Assembly: GCA_000004695.1 (NCBI GenBank)
Contig: CM000155.2
Coordinates: forward strand, 1,376,001 to 1,440,000
Source: Dictyostelium discoideum
Lineage: Eukaryota
Reading direction: 5' to 3'
Length of the DNA: 64,000 nt
The notes beneath the pieces were generated by a model. The model was given only the letters and a program-made list of their open reading frames with translations, made no database searches and was not told the DNA's origin. This document shows positions 2,389-17,777 of the stretch, piece after piece (positions within the stretch are counted from its first letter, which is position 1; each line of letters starts with the position of its first letter). The position numbers were made by a program, and so were the translations under genes.

Positions 2389-2431
2389 TAATTTTTTTTT
2401 TTTTTCATTTTTTTTTTCTAATTAATTTTTA

Positions 2432-2830
2432 TTAATTTATTTTTATTAACTCCCTGAGTTGTTCAATTGCTTGATTTACCATATCACTGTAAACACTGCA
2501 CACAATTGAATTTTTTCTAGCTTTGTTACCTCTGGTGCATTTGATGTTTTTGCATTTTCCTTTGTATACAAAAAAGTCCAAATATAATTCGTTTTCTATT
2601 ACAGTTTTTACACAATGTTGGTGAAATTGTTTTGATTTTAATTCTAATGCTTCTAACATCATATTTGGATTTTTAACGATTAAAGCATCACCACTATTTA
2701 CATATAGTACTTTGGCTGCTTTTTCGAGGAATTTAGTCAAATTTTCCTCTGAATCTAACTATTCTTCATTGCCATATTCAATGGCTAAATTTCTTAAGAG
2801 TTTTATCGAATCTATTAATTCTTCGATCAT
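2432..2830 (-). CDS. Small hypothetical ORF, unidentified; N-terminal 23 codons (MIEELIDSIKLLRNLAIEYGNEE) lie in a different frame from the 102-aa track ORF, so a frameshift or sequencing error next to the gap is likely
   Basis: Track ORF 2432..2740 (102 aa, contains FFVYKGKCKNIKCTRGNKARK). Upstream minus-strand ATG at 2830 opens a second frame that stops at TAG and abuts the first ORF. Moderate GC and no homopolymers suggest coding, but I could not match a family. Confidence 0.25.
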
Positions 2831-3066
2831 TCTTTTTTTTTGAAATTTTTTTTTATTTTGTTTTTTCAATTTTTTTTTTTTATTTTGTTTTTTCAATTTT
2901 TTTTAAGTTTTATTTTTTTTTATTTTTTTTTATTTTTTTTAACAAATGTAATTTTTTTTTATTTTTTTCAATTTTTTTTTTTTTTTAATTTTTAATTTTT
3001 TTTTTTTTTTTTAATTTTTTGTGTTGATTTGTGTTTTTTTTGTTTTTTTGATTTGGCCACTTGTTT

Positions 3067-5360
3067 TTATTTTCTAATTTCCCCATACCCCCTTCTATTA
3101 ATTGCAACCAAATCAAGTTCTAATTTTTGTGTCCTTGTTAACTTTGTTTTTGCAACTTTTTTTGAAGGTATCACATTAACGATTTTTCCTATTGATGGTG
3201 ATTTGGAAGGTGATTTAAATGGTGATTTAAAAGGTGAATTGGAAGGTGATTTAAATGGTGAATTGGAAGGTGAAATGGATGGTGATTTGGAAGGTGATTT
3301 AAATGGTGATTTGGAAGGTGATTTAAATGGTGATTTAAATGGTGAATTGGAAGGTGAAATGGATGGTGATTTGAGAGGTGATTTGGATGGTTTAGAATGT
3401 GATTTTAAAGGAGGTTTATTAACAATTGGTATCTTATGAGGACGGCCTCTGAGACGTTTAACAGTTGTTACTATACCACTACCAGATTGTGGTATAGTAT
3501 ACGATGGTATTATTTGCACTTGAGGTATTGGTGGTACTATTTCTTTTAAATTCATATCCTTTCTCAAACAATTCATTAAATTTGGCGCTGTTGGATTATT
3601 ATTTAAAAATGGGAGTATTTCTTCTTGTTCCATTTCATTATTGAGTTTGTGTTGAAATGGATTATCGTTAATGATAGGTGGAATATTTGATGGATTGTTA
3701 AGAGCATCTTCCAAAACCCTAAATGGATCATTTTGTGTTACCAATTGATGCAAGTTGAAATTGGATAAATCCTTACCAAGATTTTTAATAAACTGAACCA
3801 GAAATTCAATAACTTTCCCATCATTATTTAAATAAAGACCAGAAGTAAAAGAATCAATATCTTTTTGTATGTTTGGCGATGTTCTAAAAATATCAACTGT
3901 TGATTGTTTATAAAGAACCAACTTGTTACCTCCTACAAAACCAGAGTATAAACCTTTTTTTTGAAGGCTATTGATTCCATCTTCCAAAAATTCAAGTTTA
4001 TAAAGTTGTTTAGTGTCTTCCTGTATTACCTTATGAATTTTACACAAAATCAATATTTTCTATTAGAATTAAATATAAAATTTGTTAATTATTACTGTTT
4101 CATATATTATTAATCTTTATGTTTTAATTACTTACATTATTTTTTTTAATTTCTAGAAAGAGTACAGTATCACCAACTTTCAATCCCTTTGGTGGTTTTG
4201 AATTCCATTGATTTTGGTAACTTGTGAGATTTTCAAGAATAATAGCTGTTCTTTCTTCTTTTGAAACATCTGAAACACCAATTGATTGAGAGTCTTGTTC
4301 TGATTGAACATTAATAAACAAAGGAACAATACCAACAGCTTGAGATGGTTTCATTTTAATTGTTCTTGTTTTTGTATTATTGTAATCATACAAAGCTTGT
4401 TTTAATAGTTCAGAAAGAGACCTAGAAGTACCATCAAGAAAACTAAAATTTATTTATAAATGATTAATTAATAAACATATCGATAATTTATATTGTTCAC
4501 AATATCATACTCTTGTTGTTTTAATTTTGAGATCCTCTCCTTGATAGTTCGATTCAATCTTTCTACCATACCTTGAGTTGTTGGTGTACGAGGAGCTCCA
4601 TGTGCTGACTTGGAGCCTGGAAAAAGTTTTAGGAATTCTTTTTGGACTTTGTTTTTAAATTCACGTCCATTATCGCAGTGCCATACTTTCACAGGTTTGC
4701 CAAAGTACGTGAGAGCCAAAAAATTGTATATGGGAACTGTTCTCTTTGTTGTCAAACATCTAAAAAATAAATGATAATTAAAATAAAAAAAGAAAACTAA
4801 TAAATTAATAAATAAAAAATAAATACCTTCCAGTAGCAAATTTTGTAAAAGAATCTATGCATAGAATAATGTAAACAACATCGGTGTCGTACGGTTGTAC
4901 AGAGTCATATTGGATAAGATCATCTAGTTTAGTTAGTATCTTTTCATTATCATCATCGTATGTAACTTTTTCTTTATGTTCACCTTTAATTGATGTTAAA
5001 TCATAAACCAATCTTGAGTATTCCTCGGTATCTACAATTGGAGCAAAATCCTTTGTTATACCTATTAATTTATTTAAATTATTAAAAGAGTTTTAATATA
5101 AAAGTTACAAAACATCATATAAAAATGATTGATACCAAACCTTTTATTCTATTTCGTTGGCAAATGTCACACGTATCTACTGCATCAGATACAAAAGAAT
5201 ACAATCCCATATTATAATATTTAGTCTTGTAGTTCCCATAGGTTGCATCTCTTCCTATATGACCTTTATGCATTTCTTCCCAGAGTGATACCATTCTATA
5301 ATCATTAATTACTTCTAAACACACTTCTTTTGATATATTTCTATCTCCGCCACAATTCAT
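3067..5360 (-). mobile_element. Degenerate Ty3/gypsy (chromovirus; skipper/DGLT-like) integrase fragment: HHCC zinc finger, DDE core, C-terminal GPY/SH3-like region, possible chromodomain-like segment, then a novel AT-hook + (SPxK)n tail; frame-disrupted
   Basis: Minus-strand ORF pieces in reading order. 5360..5115: H-x3-H...C-x2-C (HKGHIGRD...CDICQRNR). 5011..4805: IDSFTKFATG. 4839..4468: VWHCDNGREFKNK...HGAPRTPTTQGMVERLNRTIKE, the classic retroviral-type integrase core. 4393..4124: ALYDYNNTKTRTI...KGLKVGDTVLF. 4053..3067: KIHKVIQEDTKQLYKLEFLEDG, then KRLRGRPHK and SPxK repeats. The frames of successive pieces differ. The junction at 4468/4393 cannot be rescued by any GT-AG splice in any phase, so it is a true frameshift. 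No RT or RNase H lies upstream (5360-5800 is poly-A), so the element is truncated. Confidence 0.75.
3195..3425 (-). repeat. About 19 tandem 12-bp units (ggtgatttggaa/ggtgatttaaat/ggtgaattggaa on plus strand) encoding an (S-P-x-K)n repeat (KSPSKSPFKSPSNSPF...) at the C-terminus of the integrase-like ORF
   Basis: Periodicity visible directly in the sequence; the minus-strand translation gives SPSK/SPFK/SPSN/SPSI units. The AT-hook-like RGRP lies just upstream (plus 3441-3463, ggacggcctctgagacg). Confidence 0.9.
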
Positions 5361-5579
5361 GACTTTTTTTTCAATTCTAAATAATTTTTCTTTTCTGTTT
5401 CTGTTTTTTATTGGTCAGAATTTAAAAAATGATTGTGTTATTGTAAGGAAAAATATTTACTCATCATGTAAAAATTTATAATTTTTATGTTTAGTATTTT
5501 CAAAATTATTATCTTCAATAAATTTTAAATAATTTATAATTTCATTTATTTTATCTTGTTTCATTTTGGGAAAATGAAA

Positions 5580-5614
<35 letters not shown>

Positions 5615-5809
5615 TGTTGGGGAAAAAAAAAAAAAGTTTTGGCGCAAAAAAAAAAAAAAAAATTAAATTAAAAAAAAAAAAAATTAAATTAAAAAAAAAA
5701 AAAAATAAAAAAACTTATATAGAACTAATAATCAAATAAAAGATAATAATTTAATAAACTTTATTTGTTTTTTGAAAAAAAAAAAATTTAGGGTCAGTGA
5801 TTTTTTTTT

Positions 5810-5875
5810 TTCACTACGCTACTGTAGTGAAATTAAATAATAAAATTCACTACGCTACTGTAGTGAAATTTTATT
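5810..5875. repeat. Two direct copies of a 26-bp element (attcactacgctactgtagtgaaatt), each containing an inverted repeat tcactac-gctac-tgtagtga (hairpin potential)
   Basis: Exact duplicate 32 bp apart (5823-5848 and 5855-5880 approx). It sits between the poly-A tract that follows the integrase fragment and the first codon of the truncated paralogue A. Confidence 0.9.
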
Positions 5876-6979
5876 GAAAATTCCCTACAACAATAATCAT
5901 ATTCAAAATTTAGATAAACAAATTGATATCAATAATAAGTTATTAAATGAATCAAATAATTTATTTAAACCATTAGAAGATAAACACACTGAAAATGTAA
6001 ATACAATCACAAAAGTATTTAAAGAACTCTCCAAATTATTACCAATCATTGAAATTGATAAAATCAAACAATTAGTAACACTCTATGATGAAAATAAAGA
6101 TATCAATACAAACATTTCAACCATTATACATGATAATTTAAATAATATTAATTTAATTACAAATAAATATAAAAATACAATAAATCAAATAAATATTGAT
6201 CAAATCATTAATAACAATAAAAATAATTATCAACATATTGAAATATTAAAACATTGTCATCAATCACAATTATTAATAAAAGATAATCAAAATGAAAATA
6301 AAATCAAAGAATTAATAAATCAATATAAAAATGTAAATATTGTAAATAATAGTAAACAAGTTAAAGAATCAATTAAAGAAATATTTGAAATTAGCGATTC
6401 TCTCTCTATTGCAAATGTAAAAGACCCAAAAAGAGTTACTGGTAAATATTTTAAAAAAATATAAATATAATAATAATTGTGGTATTTGTTTTATTTTAAT
6501 TATTAATATTAAATTATTTATTTAAAGTTACAGGAAAAGGATATTTTATTTATAAAAATGATTCTATCATTCCAAATGGTACTACTCATGTAGCGATTGC
6601 ACCAAGTGTTAGAACAATTAAAATAGGTTCAATTCCAACATCGATTCAATATTTGGTATTACTTGATGGATTTAATGTTCAACTAAAAGAAGGTATGCTA
6701 CCGCAATCAATTATATATCTATATGTTGGTGCAATTAAAAAACCATTGTTAAAAGGTTCAATACCAAATAGTGTTACTGGTTTGTTTTTATTAGATGGAT
6801 TTAATCAAGAAATAACTGAAATACCACAATCATCTTGTTTATACCTTTTTGATACTCCTTTGACAAATTTCCCATTTCAAAATCTAATTTACAGAAGCCC
6901 AAAATATAAACAACAACTCACTCACTCAAAGGTTGGTAATTGGGATGGTCGTAATTATGATCCTATAATTGAACTTTAA
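5874..6979 (+). pseudogene. Paralogue A of a B-box/coiled-coil/FNIP-repeat gene family, 5'-truncated: no B-box and no ATG; exons 5874-6441 and 6528-6979
   Basis: Homology to copy C read directly (..IEILKHCHQSQLLIKDNQNE..KDPKRVTG vs ..IELLKHSYQTQILLNEQDDD..KDPKRVKG). Intron 6442-6527 (GTAAAT...TTTAAAG), phase 1, at the same position as the copy-C intron. Exon 2 encodes VLLDGFNVQL...GSIPNSVTGLFLLDGFNQEI (FNIP-like repeats). The open frame starts at TTG immediately after the 26-bp repeat, and there is no Met codon in 196 codons. Confidence 0.6.
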
Positions 6980-7270
6980 AATATATTTATGTTTGGTAAT
7001 AACAAATGGAAATCCATCTATAAATTTCTCTTTTTTTTATTTCATTATTTTTTTAAAATTGTTTTAAAACGATAAATGAAGAAAAAAATTTATTTTAAAT
7101 TTCCACATTTAAGTTTACCACTTTTTTTATTTTGAACATAAAATTTATTTTCCAAAGAGTTAAATAAATCACATTATTATAAAATTACACATTTTTGTTT
7201 TATTTTTTTCCTTTTTGAGATAAAAATTGTTTTTTTTATATCTAAATATTATCATTAAAAATGAAACAAC

Positions 7271-7325
<55 letters not shown>

Positions 7326-7640
7326 AAGAATACCAAAAAAAGAACTCTAACCAAAATAATAAAAATCATTAAAAAAAAGTGATTTTTATTTTTTACATTC
7401 TATTTTAATTACCTTTTATATGTAGAATGTATCTACCAAATCCAGAAAAATAATTTCCATATGAGCAAAGAAATTGTATTAAATAAAATTTATTTTTATT
7501 AACTATTTAGGCGATTTAAATTTTAAATGTATTTTTTTTTATATAAAATGTAAAAAAACTCGATTTTAAATTTATAGAATAGTATTTTATAATTAAAAAA
7601 ACAATAACACAAATTAAAGAAGATTCCAAAAACTATGATA

Positions 7641-8660
7641 TGAAATGTGAATTTCATGAAGAAAATAAATATAAATTGATATGCCCAACATGTAAAGTTG
7701 CAATGTGTAAAGTTTGCATAATCAGTAAAGGTCATCGTGGTCATGAAACTGAGTTGATTACAAAAGATAGTATTGAACCAATAACTAAAGAATTTAAAGA
7801 TATTAATTTCAAATCAATACAAGAATGTTCAAATAATATTAAATAAAATTTAGAAATATCAAATAAAAAGTTTTATAAAATTGAAAAAGAATATTCAAAA
7901 AATGAAAACTTTGGAACCAAATGAATTCAAGAAAATAAACAAATTATTACAAAAAACAGAAAATGATAAAATTAAAGAACTTTCAACTCATTTTAATACA
8001 AATAAAGAAATCAATACAACATTTCAACTTTGGCAAATAAAAATTTAAAAAATATTGATCAAATTCAAAAGAAATTAAAAGAATTAAGAGACTTTAATGT
8101 GGAATCATTAAATGATAATGATAACAATAGTAATGATAAGGATAAGATTTTAGATTTTTTAAAACATTATCATCAAACCAAAATTGTTTTAAAAGAAATT
8201 TCTTATGAAAGTGAAAGTGAAATTAATGAATTATTAAGTGAATATGAATATATTACCAAACGGTACTCCATATTTAGAATTAGGACCAAGCATAAAGAAT
8301 TTGAAAGCTGGTTCTATTCCTACAACTGTAGTCTATATTATTTTACTAAATGGATTTAATTTCCAACTTTTAAATGGTATTTTACCAAGTTCACTTCAAG
8401 TATTATATGTTGGAGCTATCGAAAAACCATTATTGAATGGTTCAATACCATCAAATGTTTCCACACTCGTTTTATTGGATGGATTCAATCAAAAAATATC
8501 TGAAATACTACCAAGGATTAGTGTTGTATATGTTGGTGATATTCATTCAGAAGAAATTCCACTAAAAAGTACTATCCAAATTAAAAAATCCCCTTCTTGT
8601 AAACAACAATTCAACAATAGCAATTATGTATACGAATGGGAAGGATGTAAGGAAAAATAG
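7641..8660 (+). pseudogene. Paralogue B of the B-box/coiled-coil/FNIP family: intact B-box (MKCEFHEENKYKLICPTCKVAMCKVCIISKGHRGHE), then at least four frame changes; intron-less at the position where copies A and C carry an intron
   Basis: Track ORFs 7640..7846 (B-box), 8030..8359 (coiled coil, LKHYHQTKIVLKEISYESESEINELLSEYEYI) and 8238..8660 (LPNGTPYLELGPSIK..LNGFNFQL..LLDGFNQKI) lie in different frames. Between 7847 and 8040 there are two more short frame-shifted pieces homologous to the copy-C coiled coil. Confidence 0.55.
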
Positions 8661-9732
8661 TTTAATTAGAGGAAATTAAAAAAACAATAAATAATATTAG
8701 TTATTAGAAAGATTTTTAAAAGAGATTATTATAATTTTTTTTTTTTTTCTAAAAATCATTATATAATTTGTTGTTGCTGTTTCTCTTTTTGTTGCTTTCT
8801 AATTCTGCTAATTTCTTTTCTATTTCTTGTTCTTTTCTCAACTTGATCCATGTTTTCTAATTTTTCACCTTTTTCAGCTTTTTCTTTTTGTTAAATTTAA
8901 GTTTTCTTTGTTTTTCTTGTTGTTTTTCACGAGTTCTTTAATTCTTGTTTTTCTTTTGCTTCGTTATCTCTTCTTTTTCCTCTTTCTTTCTTTGTTTTTC
9001 TTTTTGTTGTTTGTTGTTGTTTTTAAAATTTTATTTCTTTTCAATCTTTTACTCATATTCTAATTGTAATTGTTTATCTTTTTCAAGTTTTTCTTTTATT
9101 TCTCTTTCTTTTTCAATTGAGCTTATTGTTATTGGTTTCTATTTTTTTCTTCTTTTTTTCTTCTATTTCTATTTCTCTTTCCAATTCCATTTGAGTCAAT
9201 TTTTCTTGTTTTTCTCTTTGATATTTTTTTTTGGTCTTTTTGAATGCATTCTAGGTCACTTTGTTCTTGTTTCTTTTTCCAATGGTTTTTTATTTTCAAA
9301 TTGTTTCTCTGATTGAAAGATTGATTTCACGTCTACTGAGAATGCAGATTGTTTCTCTTTCTAATTGAAGACCAGATTGATATTATGTTGTAATATTACC
9401 CATTGTTGTTGATGAATTGACATCAGAATCAGCAGAATTGAAACAGCTAAACAATATAAATTATTCCATCTTGAGGGTAGACGTAATATTAGAGTTAAAA
9501 GTTGATTTAAATCATTGATAGTGATGGAAAAAAAAAAAAAAATGAAAAAAAAAAAATAAAAAAAAATAAAAAATAAAAAAAAAAAAAATAAACTAGATTA
9601 ATACGAGACAGATCAATTAAATATTTTTTAAAAAAAATAATAATAATAATAAAATAAAATTATTTATTTGAAAAAAAATAAAAATAAAAATTAATTAAAT
9701 TATAATTTTTTGATTTTAATTATTTTTGGAAG

Positions 9733-9764
<32 letters not shown>

Positions 9765-9821
9765 GAATATTTTTTTTTTTTTTTTTTTTTTTTGATTTTA
9801 TTTTTATATTTATATTTAAAA

Positions 9822-11600
9822 ATGGATGACTATAGTATTTTATTTAAAATTATTAAAACTGAAGAGATTAAAAATAATAATGAAATAGATATAATTTTTT
9901 TTAAAGTTTGGAGAAATAAATTTATTTTAAATGAAATTAATCTTCATCAAAGATTATATAATTTAAATGAAAAAAAGAAATTTAAAATTTGTAAAGATTT
10001 TCATGAATTTAAATATAAAGAATATGTAAAAGATTTAACTATTTCAAGTAATGATGAAAATACATTTACAAATCAATTTAAAGTACCAAAAGGTATTTTC
10101 AAATTAACATTTTCAAATTTAAATAGAGAATTTAATATTAGAAATGTAATTCCATCAACGGTAACTCATTTAAAATTTGGTGATGAATTTAATAAACTTT
10201 TGTCACCTGGTGATATTACAAAGGGTGTTAAACATTTAGAATTTGGTAAAAAATTCAATCAACCATTTACAAATGCAGGTGTAATTCCATCAACTGTTGA
10301 AACTATAAAATTTGGAAATTTTAATAAAATTTTAAAAAAGGGTGATATACCAATGGGTGTTAGATCGGTAGAGTTTGGTTCACATTTTGATAAACCATTA
10401 AAGAATTTACCATTATCAATTGAATCATTAAAATTTGGTAGTAGATTTGGAAGAGCATTCGATGCATCACAATTACCAAGTTTGATAACTAAAATCTATG
10501 GATTTGCATCAACAGAACCATTGAAAAGCTACCAAATTCCAAGAGTTACAAGTTTACATTTCGATTCATATTATCGTCATAAATTTGAAGCTGATACATT
10601 ACCAAATGGATTATTACACTTGGATTTAAAAGATTATTCAGAAGTATATGTAATTGAAAAAGATGTTTTACCAAAAACATTGGAAAAGTTGGAACTTCCT
10701 TATAGATATAATCATAGAATTGAAATTGGTGTTTTACCTCAAACCTCTTTGAAAACTTTATACTGTTATTCAGATTACCAATATCCTTTAGAAGATAATG
10801 TTTTACCAAAATCATTAACAGAATTAACATTTGGTATTAAATCAGATATAATATTCACCAATTGTAAATTACCATCAAATATTAAAAATTTAGAATTAAA
10901 TTATTTTAATGATCCATTAAAAGATATTTTACCAAGTAAATTAGAATCATTGAAAATTAAAGGACTAAATCAGAATATTGAATTGGGTAATTTACCAAAA
11001 TCATTAAAGGAAATAACATTCTCACATAATTTTAATAACATTTTAGAAGTGAATGTTTTACCTTTAAATTTGGTTAAATTGGACTTAGGTGGTTATAATC
11101 AACCTCTACGTAAAGGTGTCATTCCAAATAGTGTTTTAATTTTAAAATTAAATACATTTGATAAAATTTTAAAAGTTGGTGATTTACCAAACTCAATAAT
11201 TTCATTGGAAATGGTGTGTTATAATCAACCTTTAATATCAAGAGTTTTACCAAATGCTTTAAAGAAATTAAAATTTGGAGATTTCAATTCAAGATTTGAA
11301 ATTGATTCTTTACCAAATACATTAACTCATTTGGAATTTAAAAGATTTAAACAAATTATTCCATCTGGTTATTTACCAAATAGTATTGAATATTTAAAAT
11401 TAGGTGATTATTTTAATCAACCTTTAAAAGGTGTAATACCATCATCAGTTACAAGTTTAAATATTGATAATTATTATTTCGATCAAGAATTATACCATTT
11501 ACCAAAATCTTTAAAAATTTTATACTTTGATAAATTAAAAAAGGATAAATTATTATCAACTTTACCAATTGACCATTCAATAATAATATTTAATGAATAG
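9822..11600 (+). CDS. FNIP-repeat protein (about 592 aa), single exon
   Basis: ATG at 9822 in-frame with track ORF 9726..11600; upstream codons are a poly-T 5' leader. Dozens of about 22-aa repeats with L/IP-x-S/T-L/V-x-x-L-x-F/L-G-x-x-FN-Q/K-x-L/I (e.g. FGDEFNKLLSPGDITKGVKHLEFGKKFNQPFTNAGVIPSTVETIKFGNFNKIL), the dictyostelid FNIP repeat. Confidence 0.85.
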   Translation: MDDYSILFKIIKTEEIKNNNEIDIIFFKVWRNKFILNEINLHQRLYNLNEKKKFKICKDFHEFKYKEYVKDLTISSNDENTFTNQFKVPKGIFKLTFSNLNREFNIRNVIPSTVTHLKFGDEFNKLLSPGDITKGVKHLEFGKKFNQPFTNAGVIPSTVETIKFGNFNKILKKGDIPMGVRSVEFGSHFDKPLKNLPLSIESLKFGSRFGRAFDASQLPSLITKIYGFASTEPLKSYQIPRVTSLHFDSYYRHKFEADTLPNGLLHLDLKDYSEVYVIEKDVLPKTLEKLELPYRYNHRIEIGVLPQTSLKTLYCYSDYQYPLEDNVLPKSLTELTFGIKSDIIFTNCKLPSNIKNLELNYFNDPLKDILPSKLESLKIKGLNQNIELGNLPKSLKEITFSHNFNNILEVNVLPLNLVKLDLGGYNQPLRKGVIPNSVLILKLNTFDKILKVGDLPNSIISLEMVCYNQPLISRVLPNALKKLKFGDFNSRFEIDSLPNTLTHLEFKRFKQIIPSGYLPNSIEYLKLGDYFNQPLKGVIPSSVTSLNIDNYYFDQELYHLPKSLKILYFDKLKKDKLLSTLPIDHSIIIFNE

Positions 11601-11817
11601 TTTTTTAAATAAAAATTAAAAAAAAAATATATAAAAAAAAAAAAAAAAAGGGTGAATTTAAATGTTTTTCAAAATTATGTATCTAAAAATAAATAATTTA
11701 ATCTAAAAAAATATTAATTCATTTAACAGGGTGGGTGTAAAATAAAAAAAAATATTTTATGCCAACTTTTTTTTTTTTTTTAATTTTTATTTTTTATTTA
11801 TAATAGTTTCTAAACAT

Positions 11818-11851
<34 letters not shown>

Positions 11852-11933
11852 TTTCAAAATTTTATTTTTTTTATTTTTTTTATTTTTTATTTTTAACTTT
11901 TTTTTAAAAAGTGTTACTTCACTTTAGTTCACA

Positions 11934-12066
11934 ATGGACGATATTCATAATAATAATGAAAACATTCAAAATGATTATGACAATATTGTAATATTATCAG
12001 AACAAGAATCAATTAAAAATCAAATTGACATTGATTTTAGTATTGAACAATTTAGTGATAATAATA

Positions 12067-12097
<31 letters not shown>

Positions 12098-12100
12098 TAG

Positions 12101-12140
<40 letters not shown>

Positions 12141-13049
12141 GATAATGATAATGATAATGATAATGATAATATAGATAATACCAGTATTATTTGTGAAGAT
12201 TATGACGATAAAATAAATATTATTAGCGATAATAATATTAATAATAATATTAATAATAATAATAATATTAATAATATTAAATACGATAATAAATGTATTT
12301 TTCATAAAGAACAAGATTATAGATTCATTTGTAGTGATTGTCAAGTACCAGTATGTGATATGTGTATAGTTAGTTCAGAATATCATAGATCTCATGTATT
12401 TGATTTAATTAATCAAGTTAATACAGCTACATTATTTCAAGATTTTAAGAATAAACATTTTCAAAATTTAGATCATTGTTTAGAGAGTATTAAAGAATCA
12501 GTCAACGATTCTAATGAAATCTATAAGAATTTAAATGAAGAACATAATCAAAATGTAAATATTGTAACTAAAGAATTTAAAGAGATTCACTCACTTTTAG
12601 AATCAATTGAAAAGGATATCATTAACAGATTAAATAGTCATCATGATGAAAATAAAGAAACCAATGAAAAAATTACAACAACTGCAAATGATCACATTAA
12701 AAATGTTGATCAATTATTAAGTAAATATAGATACTCAATCAATGATTATAATATTGATGAAATTTTTAATAATAGTAATAATAGCAATAATAATAATTGT
12801 GGTAGTAGTAATCGTCAACATATAGAATTATTAAAACATAGTTATCAAACCCAAATATTATTAAATGAACAAGATGATGATAATACACTCAATAAATTAA
12901 TAAGTGAATATAATAAAATTTCATTAATAAATTCAATTGATCTCGTTAAAAATTCAATTAAAGATACTTTTCAAATTCAACCAAATAGTCTTTATTCTGA
13001 AGATTCAAAAGATCCAAAAAGAGTTAAAGGTAATTAATTAATTTTTATA

Positions 13050-13081
<32 letters not shown>

Positions 13082-13603
13082 ATTTTTTTTAAAAAAAAAA
13101 CTAATAATTTTTTATTTTTTATTTTTTTTTAATTTTTATTAGTTGGTATTGATGAATTTTTCATTTATAAAAATGGTTGTGTTATACCGAATGGTGTTGT
13201 AAATTTAGCATTAGGACCAAGTATTAAAAAATTAACAGTTGGTTCAATTCCATCAACTATAAAGAGATTGGTTTTATTAGATGGTTTTAAAGTTCAACTT
13301 ACTGAAGGACTATTACCAAATACAATTAAATCATTACTTGTTGGTGCTATTAAAAAACCATTACTTAAAGGTTCAATACCTGCTGGCGTAGCTTACTTAT
13401 TTTTATTGGATGGTTTTGATCAAGAAATCGTTGAAATACCACGTAATGTCTCTGAAATTTTCCTTTATAATACTACTTTCATCGTTCCAATCACATATAA
13501 AGGTAATCTTTATAAGAAACCAACTTATAAACAATATACTTTATTCGGTCCAACTGCTCATGCTTGGAGTGGTGGTGGTTGGGAAGTTAAAGTTGAAATG
13601 TAA
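11934..13603 (+). CDS. Paralogue C (intact): B-box zinc finger + coiled coil + FNIP-like repeats; exons 11934-13029 and 13143-13603
   Basis: B-box read directly: CIFHKEQDYRFICSDCQVPVCDMCIVSSEYHRSH. Poly-N/D acidic N-terminus. Intron 13030-13142 (GTAATT...TTTTATTAG), phase 1, joins ..KDPKRVK-G to VGIDEFFIYKNGCVIPNGVVNLALGPSIKKLTVGSIPSTIKRLVLLDGFKVQL.., the frame of track ORF 13268..13603. Confidence 0.8.
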
Positions 13604-14051: not shown

Positions 14052-17000
14052 ATGTTTTTAACTAAAAGAGTTTCTTCTTTAGTTAAAACAAATAATTTTA
14101 AATTAAATAGTAGTATTAGTAGTATTAATTCAATTAGATCATTAAAAGATGATCAAGAATCACAACAACAACAACAACAACAACAACAATATTATTCAAC
14201 AAAAAGAAATGTATCATCAAATTTAAAGAAATTAACCAAAAAACCAACAGTTGTAAAAAGTAAAACACCAAAAAGAATTTCAGAAATGAGTAGATTATTA
14301 TCAAAATTAACAATGGAAGATCCAGATGGTATTGATGATTCACCAATTGTTGGAGATGATAAAGAATACAATATGGAGGAGGATGATTATGATAATAATG
14401 ACGAAGAGAATGAATTTCAATTTGATTCAAAATTAAAATTTGATACAACACAAGATAATCAATTATATAAAAAAGAAAATATTCAAGAAACAGAAATCGA
14501 TAAAAATAAAGAAGATAATTATTTTAATAATAATAATAATAATAATACACAAAATTCATCATCATCATCAGATAATATTAAAAAAGATAAAAAAACAATA
14601 GATGAAGAAGTTAGATTAGAATTTTGGGCTAAACAAATGGCATTACGTGATTCATTGAAAAATGATGGTGGTAAATATTTATTAGATGAAGAATCTTATC
14701 AAGAACCAATTAAAAACTATAAAATACTTGGTAGAAAATTAATGCAACGTCGTCAAGTTGAAAAAGAAAAAGAAATAGATGATAAAAAAAAATTAAAAGA
14801 GAAATTAAAATTAGAGAAAATTAAAGAATTAGGTTTAGATTTAAATTTAATTGAACAAGAAAATGAAAAAAATAAATTAAAATCTGAAGAAGCTTTAAAA
14901 GATTTATTAACAAAAGAAGAATTTGAATCATATAAAAAATCAAATAATAATAATAAAAATGATAATGAAGAAGACGAAGAAGGAGAAGAAGAAGAAGAAG
15001 AATATGATGAAGAGGATGATGATGATGATGGTATTTATGATAATATGATTGATGGTGATAGAAATCAAGGACTTGTTGATATAGATATTGGTTTACCAAA
15101 TCTTACAAGATTAAATCCATATACACCAGTACCACCACCAATTGAAATTGTTCAAGAATTATTAGAGATTAGAAAACAAGAATTAATTAAAAAAACTGAA
15201 CAATCTTCAGATGATTTCGAAAAAAGACGTCGTATAAAGAGAATTGAATTCATTGCAAAGAAAAAAGAATTACAACATAAACAAATGTTGGAAAGACATA
15301 AAAGAATGGGTTTATATGATTCAATTGTAACTGATGAAGATGAATTACCAATTGAAATCGATCCAAAAGTATTTAGTCGTTATCAAGCTGGTGATATCAC
15401 TGAACAAGAAATGTTAGATATTAGTAAAATTGAAAATAAACAAGAAAGACAAAGACAAATTAAATCAAGAATTGAAGCAAAAAATAAGAAAATTTCAAAA
15501 CAAGATAGAAATAATAATGAAGTTATTATTAAAGGTCAAGAAAATAATGAAGTAAATGAAAATATTAATAAAGAAGTTGAAAATGATGATGAAGAAGATG
15601 ATGATTATGAGGATGATGAGGATGAAGATGAGGATGATGATGATGATTATGATGATGATGATGATGATGATTTTATGAAACCATCAAGAAAGAATACAGA
15701 ATTTTTAAGACATTGGAAAATTGGTAGTATTGGTGTACCACCATTATTAAAGAAAAAGATTACATCAGCAATTAAAGAATATCCAACTGGTCAATTAAGA
15801 AATGATGCAGCATTATTATCTGAACAATTAAGAAGTAGAACTAGATTAGGTAAAGCTATTGGTTCAACTAATATAGTTGTTAAACCAGAGGATAGACCAG
15901 TGATTACCTATGGTAAAGGTCAAGTACTTGCATATATTTCTCATAGAATGCCAGGTGTTTATGCATGTACACATCGTGTATTTAGTGAGATTAACAGTAG
16001 ATTACCAAATTTCAAACCAACTTCATTATTAGATTATGGTTCTGGTCCTGGTACTGTATTATGGTCAGCAGATACAATTTGGGGTGACTCAATTAAAAGA
16101 ATTAGAGCAGTTGAACCAAGTACCTATATGAGTGATGTTGCAAAGAAACTATTGGAAGGTAATACAAATCGTGTTAAATGGTCACCTTATTTAAATACTG
16201 CCAATTTGAAGAGACAAGATGGTACAATTCCTTCAACTGAACTTAATGAAATGGTCACTGCTTCCTATGTACTATCAGAGTTACCAAGTCAAGAAGCACG
16301 TAATGATTTAGTTAGAGAGTTATGGAGTCATGTTAAACCATCGGGTATTTTGGTGTTAATTGAACCTGGTACTCCAATTGGTTTCAATATTATCAAAGAG
16401 GCAAGACAATTGATATTGGATGAAGAACCTGAAATATTAAGTATATACAAATCAACCAAAGCACAAGTAGTTGCACCATGTCCACATAGTGGTAAATGTC
16501 CAATGGGTAGTTTATCATGGTGTCATTTCTCTCAACGTGTTGAACGTCCAGTATTCCAAAAACTTGCAAAAGGTCCACATTCAACAATGCCATATGAAGA
16601 TGAAAAATATTCTTATATCGTCTTATCAAAGGTTGTACATTCATCAATTCAAAATCAATTGGAGAAACAATTACAAATCTATCCAACAGAAGAGTTGGAA
16701 CCAACTAAAAATTGGTCACGTTTAATTGAAGCACCTCTAAAGAGAGGTGGTCATGTTATTATGGATGTTTGTTCACCAAATGGTTCATTAAATAGAGTTA
16801 CTGTCGCAAGATCACATGGTAAACAAATGTATAGAGAAGCTAGAAAATCATTTTGGTCAGATTCTTTCGTTGTAGATCCTGAATTAATTGATCATCATGA
16901 AGGTAGATTCAATAGAAATGAAGAAATTGAAAATAAATTAAAACAAGAAGAAGCTGAAAAACTTGAAGAAATTAAAAAACAAAAGAAAAAATCACAATCA

Positions 17001-17777
17001 TTTTTACAAGATGATCTTGTTGATGAGGATCAAGATGATGATGAATTATCAATTGAAAATGGTGATGCTGATGGTGGTAAATCATTAACAAAGAGCGAAA
17101 AGAAAGAAAAAGAAAGAAGAAATAATAAAGATTGGATGAATGAATTACAAGGTACTGATAGAAGAGTATTAGAGAAATTAATTAAACAAGGTAAATTCAC
17201 TGAAAAATCCGGTGGTTTATTCGGTTCACAAGATAATACACCAGCTTCAGATTATGGTACAAATGAAATGGAATTTGGTTTCCAAGAAGAGGATGATGAC
17301 TTGGATGATGAAAATGATGATGAAAGCTATAGAAAGAAGAAACCAATGACTATTGCAGATTTTAAAGAAACTTCTAAAACTAGAAAACTTAGAAAAGAAA
17401 AATTACAAAAAGATTTAAATCAATTTAGAAAACAAACAATGTCACCAGAAGAATTGAAAATACAAGAAGAAAAAGAAAATGAAATTAAAAATAGATCAAA
17501 AATTTATAAAGAAAGTAATCCAAAGAAAATTGAATATTATCTTAAAAATTTCGATAATGAAAATGCTTTAGTAAATCAAGATACCATTTTACAACGTCAA
17601 CAAAATAGATTAGAAAATCAACAAACAATGAGAGAAACTTTCGAAAATATTAAAAATGGTTTAAGTATTGCTTCAAATAAAGATAAATTATTAAAAGAAA
17701 AAGAAAAAATGGATAAATTTAGAAAATTTAAAAAACAACTTGAAAAACAACAAAATGATGTTGATAATGTTGATTAA
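14052..17777 (+). CDS. Rsm22/METTL17-family mitochondrial ribosome-associated class-I methyltransferase (1241 aa) with long acidic/K-rich low-complexity N- and C-terminal extensions
   Basis: Central domain read directly: SLLDYGSGPGTVLW (SAM-binding GxGxG motif I), ..VLIEPGTP.., and Cys cluster APCPHSGKCPMGSLSWCHF typical of the Rsm22/METTL17 C-terminal metal site. N-terminus MFLTKRVSSLVKTNNFKLNSSISSINSIRSL looks like a mitochondrial presequence. Single exon. Confidence 0.75.
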   Translation: MFLTKRVSSLVKTNNFKLNSSISSINSIRSLKDDQESQQQQQQQQQYYSTKRNVSSNLKKLTKKPTVVKSKTPKRISEMSRLLSKLTMEDPDGIDDSPIVGDDKEYNMEEDDYDNNDEENEFQFDSKLKFDTTQDNQLYKKENIQETEIDKNKEDNYFNNNNNNNTQNSSSSSDNIKKDKKTIDEEVRLEFWAKQMALRDSLKNDGGKYLLDEESYQEPIKNYKILGRKLMQRRQVEKEKEIDDKKKLKEKLKLEKIKELGLDLNLIEQENEKNKLKSEEALKDLLTKEEFESYKKSNNNNKNDNEEDEEGEEEEEEYDEEDDDDDGIYDNMIDGDRNQGLVDIDIGLPNLTRLNPYTPVPPPIEIVQELLEIRKQELIKKTEQSSDDFEKRRRIKRIEFIAKKKELQHKQMLERHKRMGLYDSIVTDEDELPIEIDPKVFSRYQAGDITEQEMLDISKIENKQERQRQIKSRIEAKNKKISKQDRNNNEVIIKGQENNEVNENINKEVENDDEEDDDYEDDEDEDEDDDDDYDDDDDDDFMKPSRKNTEFLRHWKIGSIGVPPLLKKKITSAIKEYPTGQLRNDAALLSEQLRSRTRLGKAIGSTNIVVKPEDRPVITYGKGQVLAYISHRMPGVYACTHRVFSEINSRLPNFKPTSLLDYGSGPGTVLWSADTIWGDSIKRIRAVEPSTYMSDVAKKLLEGNTNRVKWSPYLNTANLKRQDGTIPSTELNEMVTASYVLSELPSQEARNDLVRELWSHVKPSGILVLIEPGTPIGFNIIKEARQLILDEEPEILSIYKSTKAQVVAPCPHSGKCPMGSLSWCHFSQRVERPVFQKLAKGPHSTMPYEDEKYSYIVLSKVVHSSIQNQLEKQLQIYPTEELEPTKNWSRLIEAPLKRGGHVIMDVCSPNGSLNRVTVARSHGKQMYREARKSFWSDSFVVDPELIDHHEGRFNRNEEIENKLKQEEAEKLEEIKKQKKKSQSFLQDDLVDEDQDDDELSIENGDADGGKSLTKSEKKEKERRNNKDWMNELQGTDRRVLEKLIKQGKFTEKSGGLFGSQDNTPASDYGTNEMEFGFQEEDDDLDDENDDESYRKKKPMTIADFKETSKTRKLRKEKLQKDLNQFRKQTMSPEELKIQEEKENEIKNRSKIYKESNPKKIEYYLKNFDNENALVNQDTILQRQQNRLENQQTMRETFENIKNGLSIASNKDKLLKEKEKMDKFRKFKKQLEKQQNDVDNVD

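Follow-up and report, generated by a model that had tools for sequence, protein, structure and literature searches.

The stretch analysed here, 64,000 nt of Dictyostelium discoideum AX4 chromosome 6 (contig CM000155.2, positions 1,376,001 to 1,440,000, forward strand) and called the window below, is very AT-rich and carries three related genes, copies A, B and C, which are relatives of AreA (DDB_G0279871) and appear to make up the distal end of an AreA-family tandem array. Copy A is the 3' part of the last copy of one subtype of this array, the A-type, split by a Tdd-type transposon and parted from its 5' half, most probably by an exchange between chromosomes. The 5' end of A, at 5892|5893, is quite probably the breakpoint, at base-pair resolution, of the reciprocal translocation of the AX2/AX4 lineage, brought about by homologous recombination between two Tdd-4/5 transposons. 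The full explanation, in which A was split by Tdd, B decayed in place, C was conserved and chromosomes 3 and 6 took part in an exchange, we hold to be highly probable.

The translocation itself is known at the level of synteny. A study of ten long-read Dictyostelium genomes from 2025 (PMC12745789) describes in its main text a reciprocal translocation creating chromosomes 3 and 6, which is found in the AX4/AX2 lineage alone and which was validated against assembly error. In that main text the name Tdd does not occur, "breakpoint" is used once in a generic sense and no junction is described. As far as this text shows, the nucleotide-level junction, the Tdd mechanism and the split gene are worked out here.

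The window was compared with an independent long-read assembly of a laboratory strain (GCA_054883475.1), in which loci L002 and L004 belong to chromosome 6 and L003 to chromosome 3, and with loci from two wild D. discoideum isolates (L001 and L007), from D. cf. discoideum (L005) and from D. citrinum (L006). The laboratory assembly is 99.76% identical to the window from 4018 to 27790, and A, B, C and the FNIP-repeat gene between B and C are 100% identical in it. The lesions in A and B described below are therefore not sequencing errors, and an assembly artefact as their origin is ruled out by the same identical genes. The features on which the argument for A is built are the following.

2389-5892, minus strand: right-hand part, about 3.5 kb, of a Tdd-4/5-type (Ginger2/Tdd) DNA transposon, whose left inverted repeat falls in the N gap at 2289-2388
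4468-4839, minus strand: rve domain, weak matches to rve and rve_3
5115-5360, minus strand: Integrase_H2C2 domain, E=4.8e-9
5573-5892, no strand assigned: right terminal inverted repeat, ending ...GAAAATTCCCTACAACA, an inverted match to the left repeat
5893-5897: target-site duplication ATAAT at the junction of transposon and A
5893-6441, plus strand: copy A (DDB_G0292274), the rest of exon 2 from about codon 62, without B-box and without native start
6442-6527, plus strand: intron of A, 86 nt, GT..AG, phase 1, at the same site as the introns of P0004 (A-type), C and the B-type genes
6528-6979, plus strand: last exon of A, tail of FNIP-type leucine-rich repeats (LRR), stop codon included

The homology of A to every intact A-type gene starts abruptly at 5889-5893, and at the same positions the synteny of the window with the wild strains begins. 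With residues 60-246 of the A-type protein P0004 as query, tblastn finds 5886-6440 at 88%. The first-pass annotation had let A begin at 5874. The open frame does run through 5874-6441 and 6528-6979, and removal of the intron gives a continuous frame of 339 codons, but 5874-5892 is the transposon terminus and authentic A sequence begins at 5893; the first exon holds no in-frame ATG. Across the insertion site intact homologues read AAAAATAATCAT, and intact genes GAATTTAAAAATAATCATATTCAAAAT, whereas the ATAAT is now split, with ...AAAAATAAT|transposon on chromosome 3 and transposon|ATAATCAT on chromosome 6. The missing B-box half is found on chromosome 3 (L003) and consists of the ATG, the B-box exon, the intron and exon 2 to codon 63; its best match is the A-type copy which adjoins B in wild strains. 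The two halves of A are complementary and not duplicated, and the chromosome 3 fragment is not followed by B, the FNIP gene or C. That A is a 5'-truncated copy lacking the B-box, as had been noticed from the sequence, is correct (there is no Pfam zf-B_box match in A); it is not a plain duplicate, since it belongs to a Tdd-split gene with its 5' half on chromosome 3.

In dictyBase A is represented by DDB_G0292274 (P0055), a 347-aa "FNIP repeat-containing protein" whose first 16 codons (MIVLFEILLKIPYNNN) are taken from transposon sequence (5429-5892). A second pipeline's model (P0025, 328 aa) has a different, two-codon start within the transposon, and a native initiation codon is absent from both models. 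No literature on DDB_G0292274 was found. The orthologue of the split gene in one wild isolate (L001 15185-16249, P0035) is degenerate in another way, having kept its B-box and lost an internal part of the FNIP region.

The transposon can be followed to its other end outside the reference sequence. A search for inverted repeats within the window gave A/T-rich noise alone, because the left end lies in the gap of 100 N at 2289-2388; it was found by way of other assemblies. The reference element is 99.5-99.7% identical to complete copies in L004 (6579-10399, 3,821 bp) and L003 (14786-19369). In the L003 copy, which lies downstream of DDB_G0279891, the last ~325 nt recur in inverted orientation at the opposite end, and the element is therefore a DNA transposon with long terminal inverted repeats; these are ~320-327 nt long, 81-82% identical and have a perfect 17-nt tip. 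A 22-nt hairpin-forming motif, TTCACTACGCTACTGTAGTGAA, occurs twice in perfect form (5810-5831 and 5846-5867, 36 nt apart; 0 expected), is subterminal in the inverted repeat and is mirrored at the other end of Tdd. It could be a putative transposase-binding site.

TDD-4 and TDD-5 are published as elements of 3,839 and 3,783 bp with 5-bp target duplications, long inverted repeats and a Gypsy-integrase-like transposase (PMC2836005). By size, by its 5-bp duplications, by its long imperfect inverted repeats and by an intron-containing transposase gene that encodes H2C2 and rve domains, the element described here appears to match them; the rve and rve_3 matches are weak because the transposase gene is split into exons. 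A difference from TDD-4 and TDD-5 is an extra 761-nt segment (L003 17985-18745) in the chromosome 3 copy, which is absent from the chromosome 6 copy; apart from this segment the two copies differ by 5 substitutions and a few small indels. An open reading frame (ORF) of 328 aa at 3067-4053 (minus strand) with (SPSKSPFK)n repeats, for which Pfam gave no match, makes up the C-terminal portion of what is annotated as the Tdd transposase gene. A third Tdd right end is present in L004 (1-1791), in the same orientation and ~4.8 kb upstream of the one abutting A, but next to other flanking sequence, …ACAACA|ATATGGATAAATT.

The junctions of the two complete copies carry the argument for an exchange. 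On chromosome 3 they read ...GAATTTAAAAATAAT|TGTTGTAGGG...Tdd...CCCTACAACA|CCGACTCTCAAATG... and on chromosome 6 ...CTCATTCCGAC|TGTTGTAGGG...Tdd...CCCTACAACA|ATAATCATATTCAAAAT... The target duplications are swapped: with X for the outer flank on chromosome 6 and Y for that on chromosome 3, the order is 5'A-ATAAT-Tdd-CCGAC-Y on chromosome 3 and X-CCGAC-Tdd-ATAAT-3'A on chromosome 6. When X and Y are joined through a single CCGAC, an uninterrupted retrotransposon pol ORF of 829 codons runs across the junction, with protease DTG, reverse transcriptase and RNase H; the pol sequence of this partner site lies around ...CATTCCGACTCTCAAATG...

In L001, L005, L006 and L007 the array is found on one contig each, in the order A-type copies, B-type gene, FNIP gene, C and an Rsm22-like gene, and this contiguity in four other genomes supports the exchange account. 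AreA heads the array in L001 and L007, the two wild D. discoideum loci reaching that far. Judged from these orders, the ancestral layout would be AreA, several fast-evolving A-type copies, one B-type gene, a FNIP gene with 13 repeats, a C-type gene and DDB_G0292286.

We infer the following order of events. A cut-and-paste transposon of 3.8 kb and of Tdd-4/5 type would have inserted at about codon 62 of A and duplicated ATAAT. A second, nearly identical Tdd would have come to lie within the pol gene of a long terminal repeat (LTR) retrotransposon on another chromosome, with the duplication CCGAC. Homologous recombination between the two copies would then have exchanged the chromosome arms, so that on chromosome 3 the AreA array now ends in the B-box half of A, while chromosome 6 carries the FNIP half together with B, the FNIP gene and C. 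The outcome would be the reciprocal translocation which sets AX4/AX2 apart from all other sequenced isolates.

Copy B had been read as an intronless pseudogene, retro-copied or gene-converted. Its features are these, the lesions being taken from nucleotide alignment to intact orthologues.

7604-8660, plus strand: copy B, a B-type pseudogene at its ancestral position, from alignment to the intact L005 and L007 orthologues
7604-7606: ancestral start codon changed from ATG to ATA
7844-7846: GAA changed to TAA
7919: insertion of one base (A), +1
after 8017: loss of one base, -1
after 8129: in-frame change, -3
8203-8208: in-frame change, +6
8255|8256, plus strand: junction of an out-of-frame deletion (site 8251-8260)
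after 8652: in-frame change, -9

Intact B-type orthologues are present in D. cf. discoideum (P0040, L005 10001-11276, with a phase-1 intron of 73 nt) and in a wild isolate (L007 17687-18975, 399 aa, phase-1 intron of 89 nt). B sits between the A-type copies and the FNIP gene, in the same position as these orthologues, and its upstream flank (7264-7639) is collinear with the orthologue's flank. The B-box is retained (zf-B_box, E=4e-9) and there are several disabling lesions, both as first noticed; a frameshift-aware alignment of B to C, AreA and an A-type protein gave one in-frame TAA, two frame changes and a large gap. The loss of the intron is not precise as had been thought: besides the entire intron the deletion took in 96 nt of exon 1 and reached 44 nt into exon 2, so that 140 exonic bases are gone. 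It measures 213 nt against L005 and 241 nt against L001, and about 224 nt as estimated from blastn coordinates in L007. TACCA stands at both deletion edges in the intact alleles, and this microhomology of 5 nt makes it likely that the segment was lost by microhomology-mediated deletion or by replication slippage. The motif KDPKRV lies within the deleted segment, so that of the motifs said to be shared by all three copies the FNIP tail is indeed present in A, B and C while KDPKRV is lost from B.

In the laboratory-strain lineage B would thus have decayed in place by loss of the start codon, gain of a stop and two single-base frameshifts, while a microhomology-mediated deletion would have removed the intron along with the 140 exonic bases. 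The orthologue in L001 has kept its intron, lacks the entire 5' half and carries a +1 frameshift other than that of B. B is therefore an in-situ (unitary) pseudogene, polymorphic among isolates, and the gene is dispensable, one wild isolate having it intact and another having it disabled by separate lesions. Against the intact orthologue B has a dN/dS of 0.38. It is unannotated apart from a fragment of its tail. At the level of RNA and protein both A and B are presumably non-functional, judged from their lesions.

Three other explanations were weighed. That B was retro-copied or gene-converted with precise loss of its intron, and that A is a plain 5'-truncated tandem duplicate, is hardly credible. 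It would account for B being intronless and disabled and for A lacking the B-box, but the exonic bases around the intron site of B are gone as well, the phase-1 intron is present in the intact orthologues of this locus, and the collinear flank leaves B at its own locus; the suggested check for a poly(A) remnant or target-site duplication found neither, there being no poly(A) tract within 140 nt 3' of the B stop and no target duplication at its 3' end. B was therefore rejected as a processed pseudogene, its junction being out of frame, exonic bases being lost and the locus being the ancestral one; and A is bounded by a transposon terminus and a target-site duplication, its 5' half being on chromosome 3. 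A segmental duplication or non-reciprocal transposition of the array end, or an assembly artefact of a repeat-rich region, is very improbable. A complete Tdd copy stands on both chromosomes, a gap interrupts the reference just where it matters and the region is packed with transposable elements, all of which would suit such an origin. A duplication is, however, at variance with the complementary halves of A, with the lack of a B-FNIP-C block behind the chromosome 3 fragment, with the swapped target duplications and with the outer flanks which rebuild one ORF; an artefact is at variance with the independent long-read assembly, which agrees with the window at 99.8%, and with the validation of the translocation in the main text of PMC12745789.

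That A and B are both functional, A as a truncated FNIP protein made from a transposon-derived first exon and B rescued by splicing, is unlikely. Two annotation pipelines call a gene at A (P0055 and P0025), the remaining frame and the intron of A are intact, and a gene is called over the B tail. The two A models nevertheless use differing short first exons inside the transposon and neither has a native ATG. The frame changes of B cannot be introns, because they are single-base indels in contiguous homologous coding sequence; there is no room for introns at the TAA or at the +1 and -1 changes, and 47 codons of conserved sequence are missing. Rescue of B by short introns, which had been named as the finding that would overturn its reading as a pseudogene, was rejected on these grounds.

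Some points weigh against the explanation by a Tdd-split A, a decayed B and an exchange between two Tdd copies. The left junction on chromosome 6 is seen in the independent assembly alone, the reference having its gap at 2289-2388 and a differing sequence to the left of it. Left of the Tdd the independent assembly has an LTR-retrotransposon pol fragment, unlike the reference, where the sequence left of the gap (797-2287) is a non-LTR retrotransposon reverse transcriptase (RVT_1, E=3e-31); the scaffold join of the reference at the N gap may be wrong or incomplete. The former contiguity of X-Tdd-Y is deduced from the restored ORF and was not seen directly in a wild strain. The assignment to TDD-4/5 was made by the published descriptions, the reference sequences being AAFI02000006.1:352615-356458 for TDD-4 and AF298206 for TDD-5. 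Expression of A from a first exon supplied by the transposon, the assumption behind the dictyBase model, is still conceivable. Finally, dN/dS does not set A apart from the intact A-type copies: it is 0.64-1.13 for A against these copies and 0.66-1.01 among the intact copies, which have kept open frames. As the intact copies evolve equally fast, dN/dS is uninformative on the pseudogene status of A.

The A-type array as a whole evolves under little or mixed constraint. The number of A-type copies varies from about 4 to 9 per isolate, with about 4 in L001, 6 in L007 and more on AX4 chromosome 3. In contrast to the A-type copies, AreA and C are strongly conserved. A weaker reading is that the A-type array may be under diversifying selection as a RING-less, TRIM-like recognition family. 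The A-type copies were located as follows.

L001, 10001-16249
L003, 102-11342
L005, 77-9174
L007, 5934-17039

The first-pass annotation had placed three paralogous copies on the plus strand here, and all three were recovered, essentially where it had put them, by tblastn with C as query (E=1.8e-77 against A, E=2.7e-32 and 1.5e-27 against B, all on the plus strand) and by a 287-nt direct-repeat family with one member in each of A, B and C (6541-6827, 8225-8511 and 13156-13442). Its view of the three as a family in birth and death is borne out by one intact and two disabled copies, and by copy number and pseudogene state varying among D. discoideum isolates. Homologues were found solely in Dictyostelium by homology searches. 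The first gene of the wild D. discoideum array, P0003, clusters at 90% identity with DDB_G0279871 (AreA), and against this AreA orthologue C matches with E=3e-128 and 53% identity, A with E=9e-89 and 50%, and B at about 39%. AreA, a B-box/FNIP protein, is a binding partner of Atg101, and autophagic flux is increased when it is knocked out (Mesquita et al., 2015, PMC4554924). Other annotated members on AX4 chromosome 3 are DDB_G0279873, 877, 879, 891, 897 and 899, and there are more elsewhere. The genes fall into three subtypes (A-, B- and C-type), of which the A-type are about 80% identical to the chromosome 3 copies and have an extra phase-0 intron within the B-box. The phase-1 intron position is common to AreA, the A-type (P0004), the B-type and the C genes; in A (6442-6527) and C (13030-13142) it was correctly placed at the outset, at the homologous codon KDPKRV(K/T)|V.

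C and the FNIP gene have the following structure.

9822-11600, plus strand: single-exon FNIP gene, 13 FNIP repeats, 592 aa, Pfam E=3e-108
11934-13029, plus strand: exon 1 of C, low-complexity N-terminus, B-box and helical region, orthologues 77-87% identical
13030-13142, plus strand: intron of C, 113 nt, GT..AG, phase 1
13143-13603, plus strand: exon 2 of C, FNIP/LRR tail, stop codon included

The product of C is 518 aa long, encoded by two exons, and intact. The N-terminal extension is shared by its orthologues in D. cf. discoideum (L005), D. citrinum (L006) and D. dimigraforme, whose phase-1 intron also occupies the site seen in C (90 nt in L005, 81 nt in L006). With dN/dS values of 0.18 and 0.23 over residues 117-518 (Nei-Gojobori), C is a conserved and constrained gene under purifying selection and would be the functional member. 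The long FNIP gene was rightly described as lying between B and C, with 13 repeats by Pfam; every strain and species examined has kept it there, with orthologues in L001, L005, L006 and L007, and has a dN/dS of 0.31-0.37. Neither the intact C protein nor the FNIP-gene protein has an exact match in the protein collection searched, and C has no AX4-named entry in either homology search, though the identical gene is called in the laboratory-strain assembly (L002). We take this as a coverage issue of the collection and not as evidence against the gene model.

In Pfam the B-box (zf-B_box, PF00643) is found in C with E=9e-8 as well as in B, and FNIP (PF05725) in A, B and C with E about 1e-9, above the gathering score. 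No RING family is among the Pfam matches for C, AreA or the B-type protein, and ligase activity is therefore not to be assumed. DUF4559, which was reported for AreA in 2015, was not recovered with current Pfam at E<=0.1. An AlphaFold (AF2) model of the D. citrinum orthologue of C, made from an alignment of 24 sequences and with a mean predicted local distance difference test score (pLDDT) of 69.8, has a disordered N-terminus, a confident B-box, predicted long helices at 155-210 and 216-259 followed by further helices, and a predicted beta-solenoid at 358-513 with pLDDT mostly >85 to about residue 490. The best Foldseek matches of this model in the PDB are the FNIP-LRR of CroV588 and B-box/coiled-coil constructs of TRIM5 (probability 0.77-0.87). 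On this model "B-box + coiled-coil + FNIP" would be a fair description, without RING. By analogy with AreA, the one member backed by experiment, and with B-box/coiled-coil scaffolds, the B-box and helices would probably mediate oligomerisation or partner binding, and the short FNIP-LRR would probably serve as a recognition surface.

The family can be compared with known systems. C shares with AreA the domain order (B-box, long helical region, FNIP tail), the phase-1 intron site and the same tandem array, but has a low-complexity N-terminal extension of ~115 residues; the A-type copies differ from AreA by the extra phase-0 intron in the B-box and by much faster evolution. The TRIM/RBCC proteins likewise have a B-box zinc finger followed by long helices (predicted here), and many of them are tandem, fast-evolving and variable in copy number; the present family differs in that no RING was detected and in that the C-terminal module is an FNIP-type LRR and not SPRY or NHL. 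The exchange resembles the yeast translocations by ectopic recombination between Ty-type elements, with two dispersed and nearly identical elements, both junctions recovered, swapped duplications and the ancestral order in outgroups. From the AX4/AX2 translocation as described in the main text of PMC12745789 it differs in resolution, the description there being at synteny level and here at nucleotide level with a split gene. B resembles other unitary pseudogenes in being disabled by a stop, frameshifts and a deletion and in being polymorphic among isolates; of the marks of processed pseudogenes (clean junction, poly(A) or target-site duplication, new locus) it has none.

For the annotation this means that DDB_G0292274 is a transposon-truncated half-gene whose model starts inside the transposon. 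Compared with natural isolates, the laboratory strains have lost one AreA-type paralogue and the B-type gene and carry the array on a rearranged chromosome, a difference that bears on studies of AreA and autophagy and on the crossing of laboratory with wild strains. A pair of DNA transposons mediating a reciprocal translocation is documented here with swapped target duplications and a split gene, and the case of B illustrates how a microhomology deletion, and not retroposition, can lie behind the "intron loss" of a pseudogene. Taken singly, the gene family, the types of pseudogene, the transposon family and the translocation belong to known kinds and no new kind of biology is involved; what is new is the nucleotide-level link among them.

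A general repeat search of the window gave mostly low-complexity families, family D11 alone being informative, and a tRNA scan, made as a test for tRNA-targeted retroelements, found none. The ORF at 14052-17777 (1,241 aa) is an exact match to DDB_G0292286, the Rsm22-like gene.

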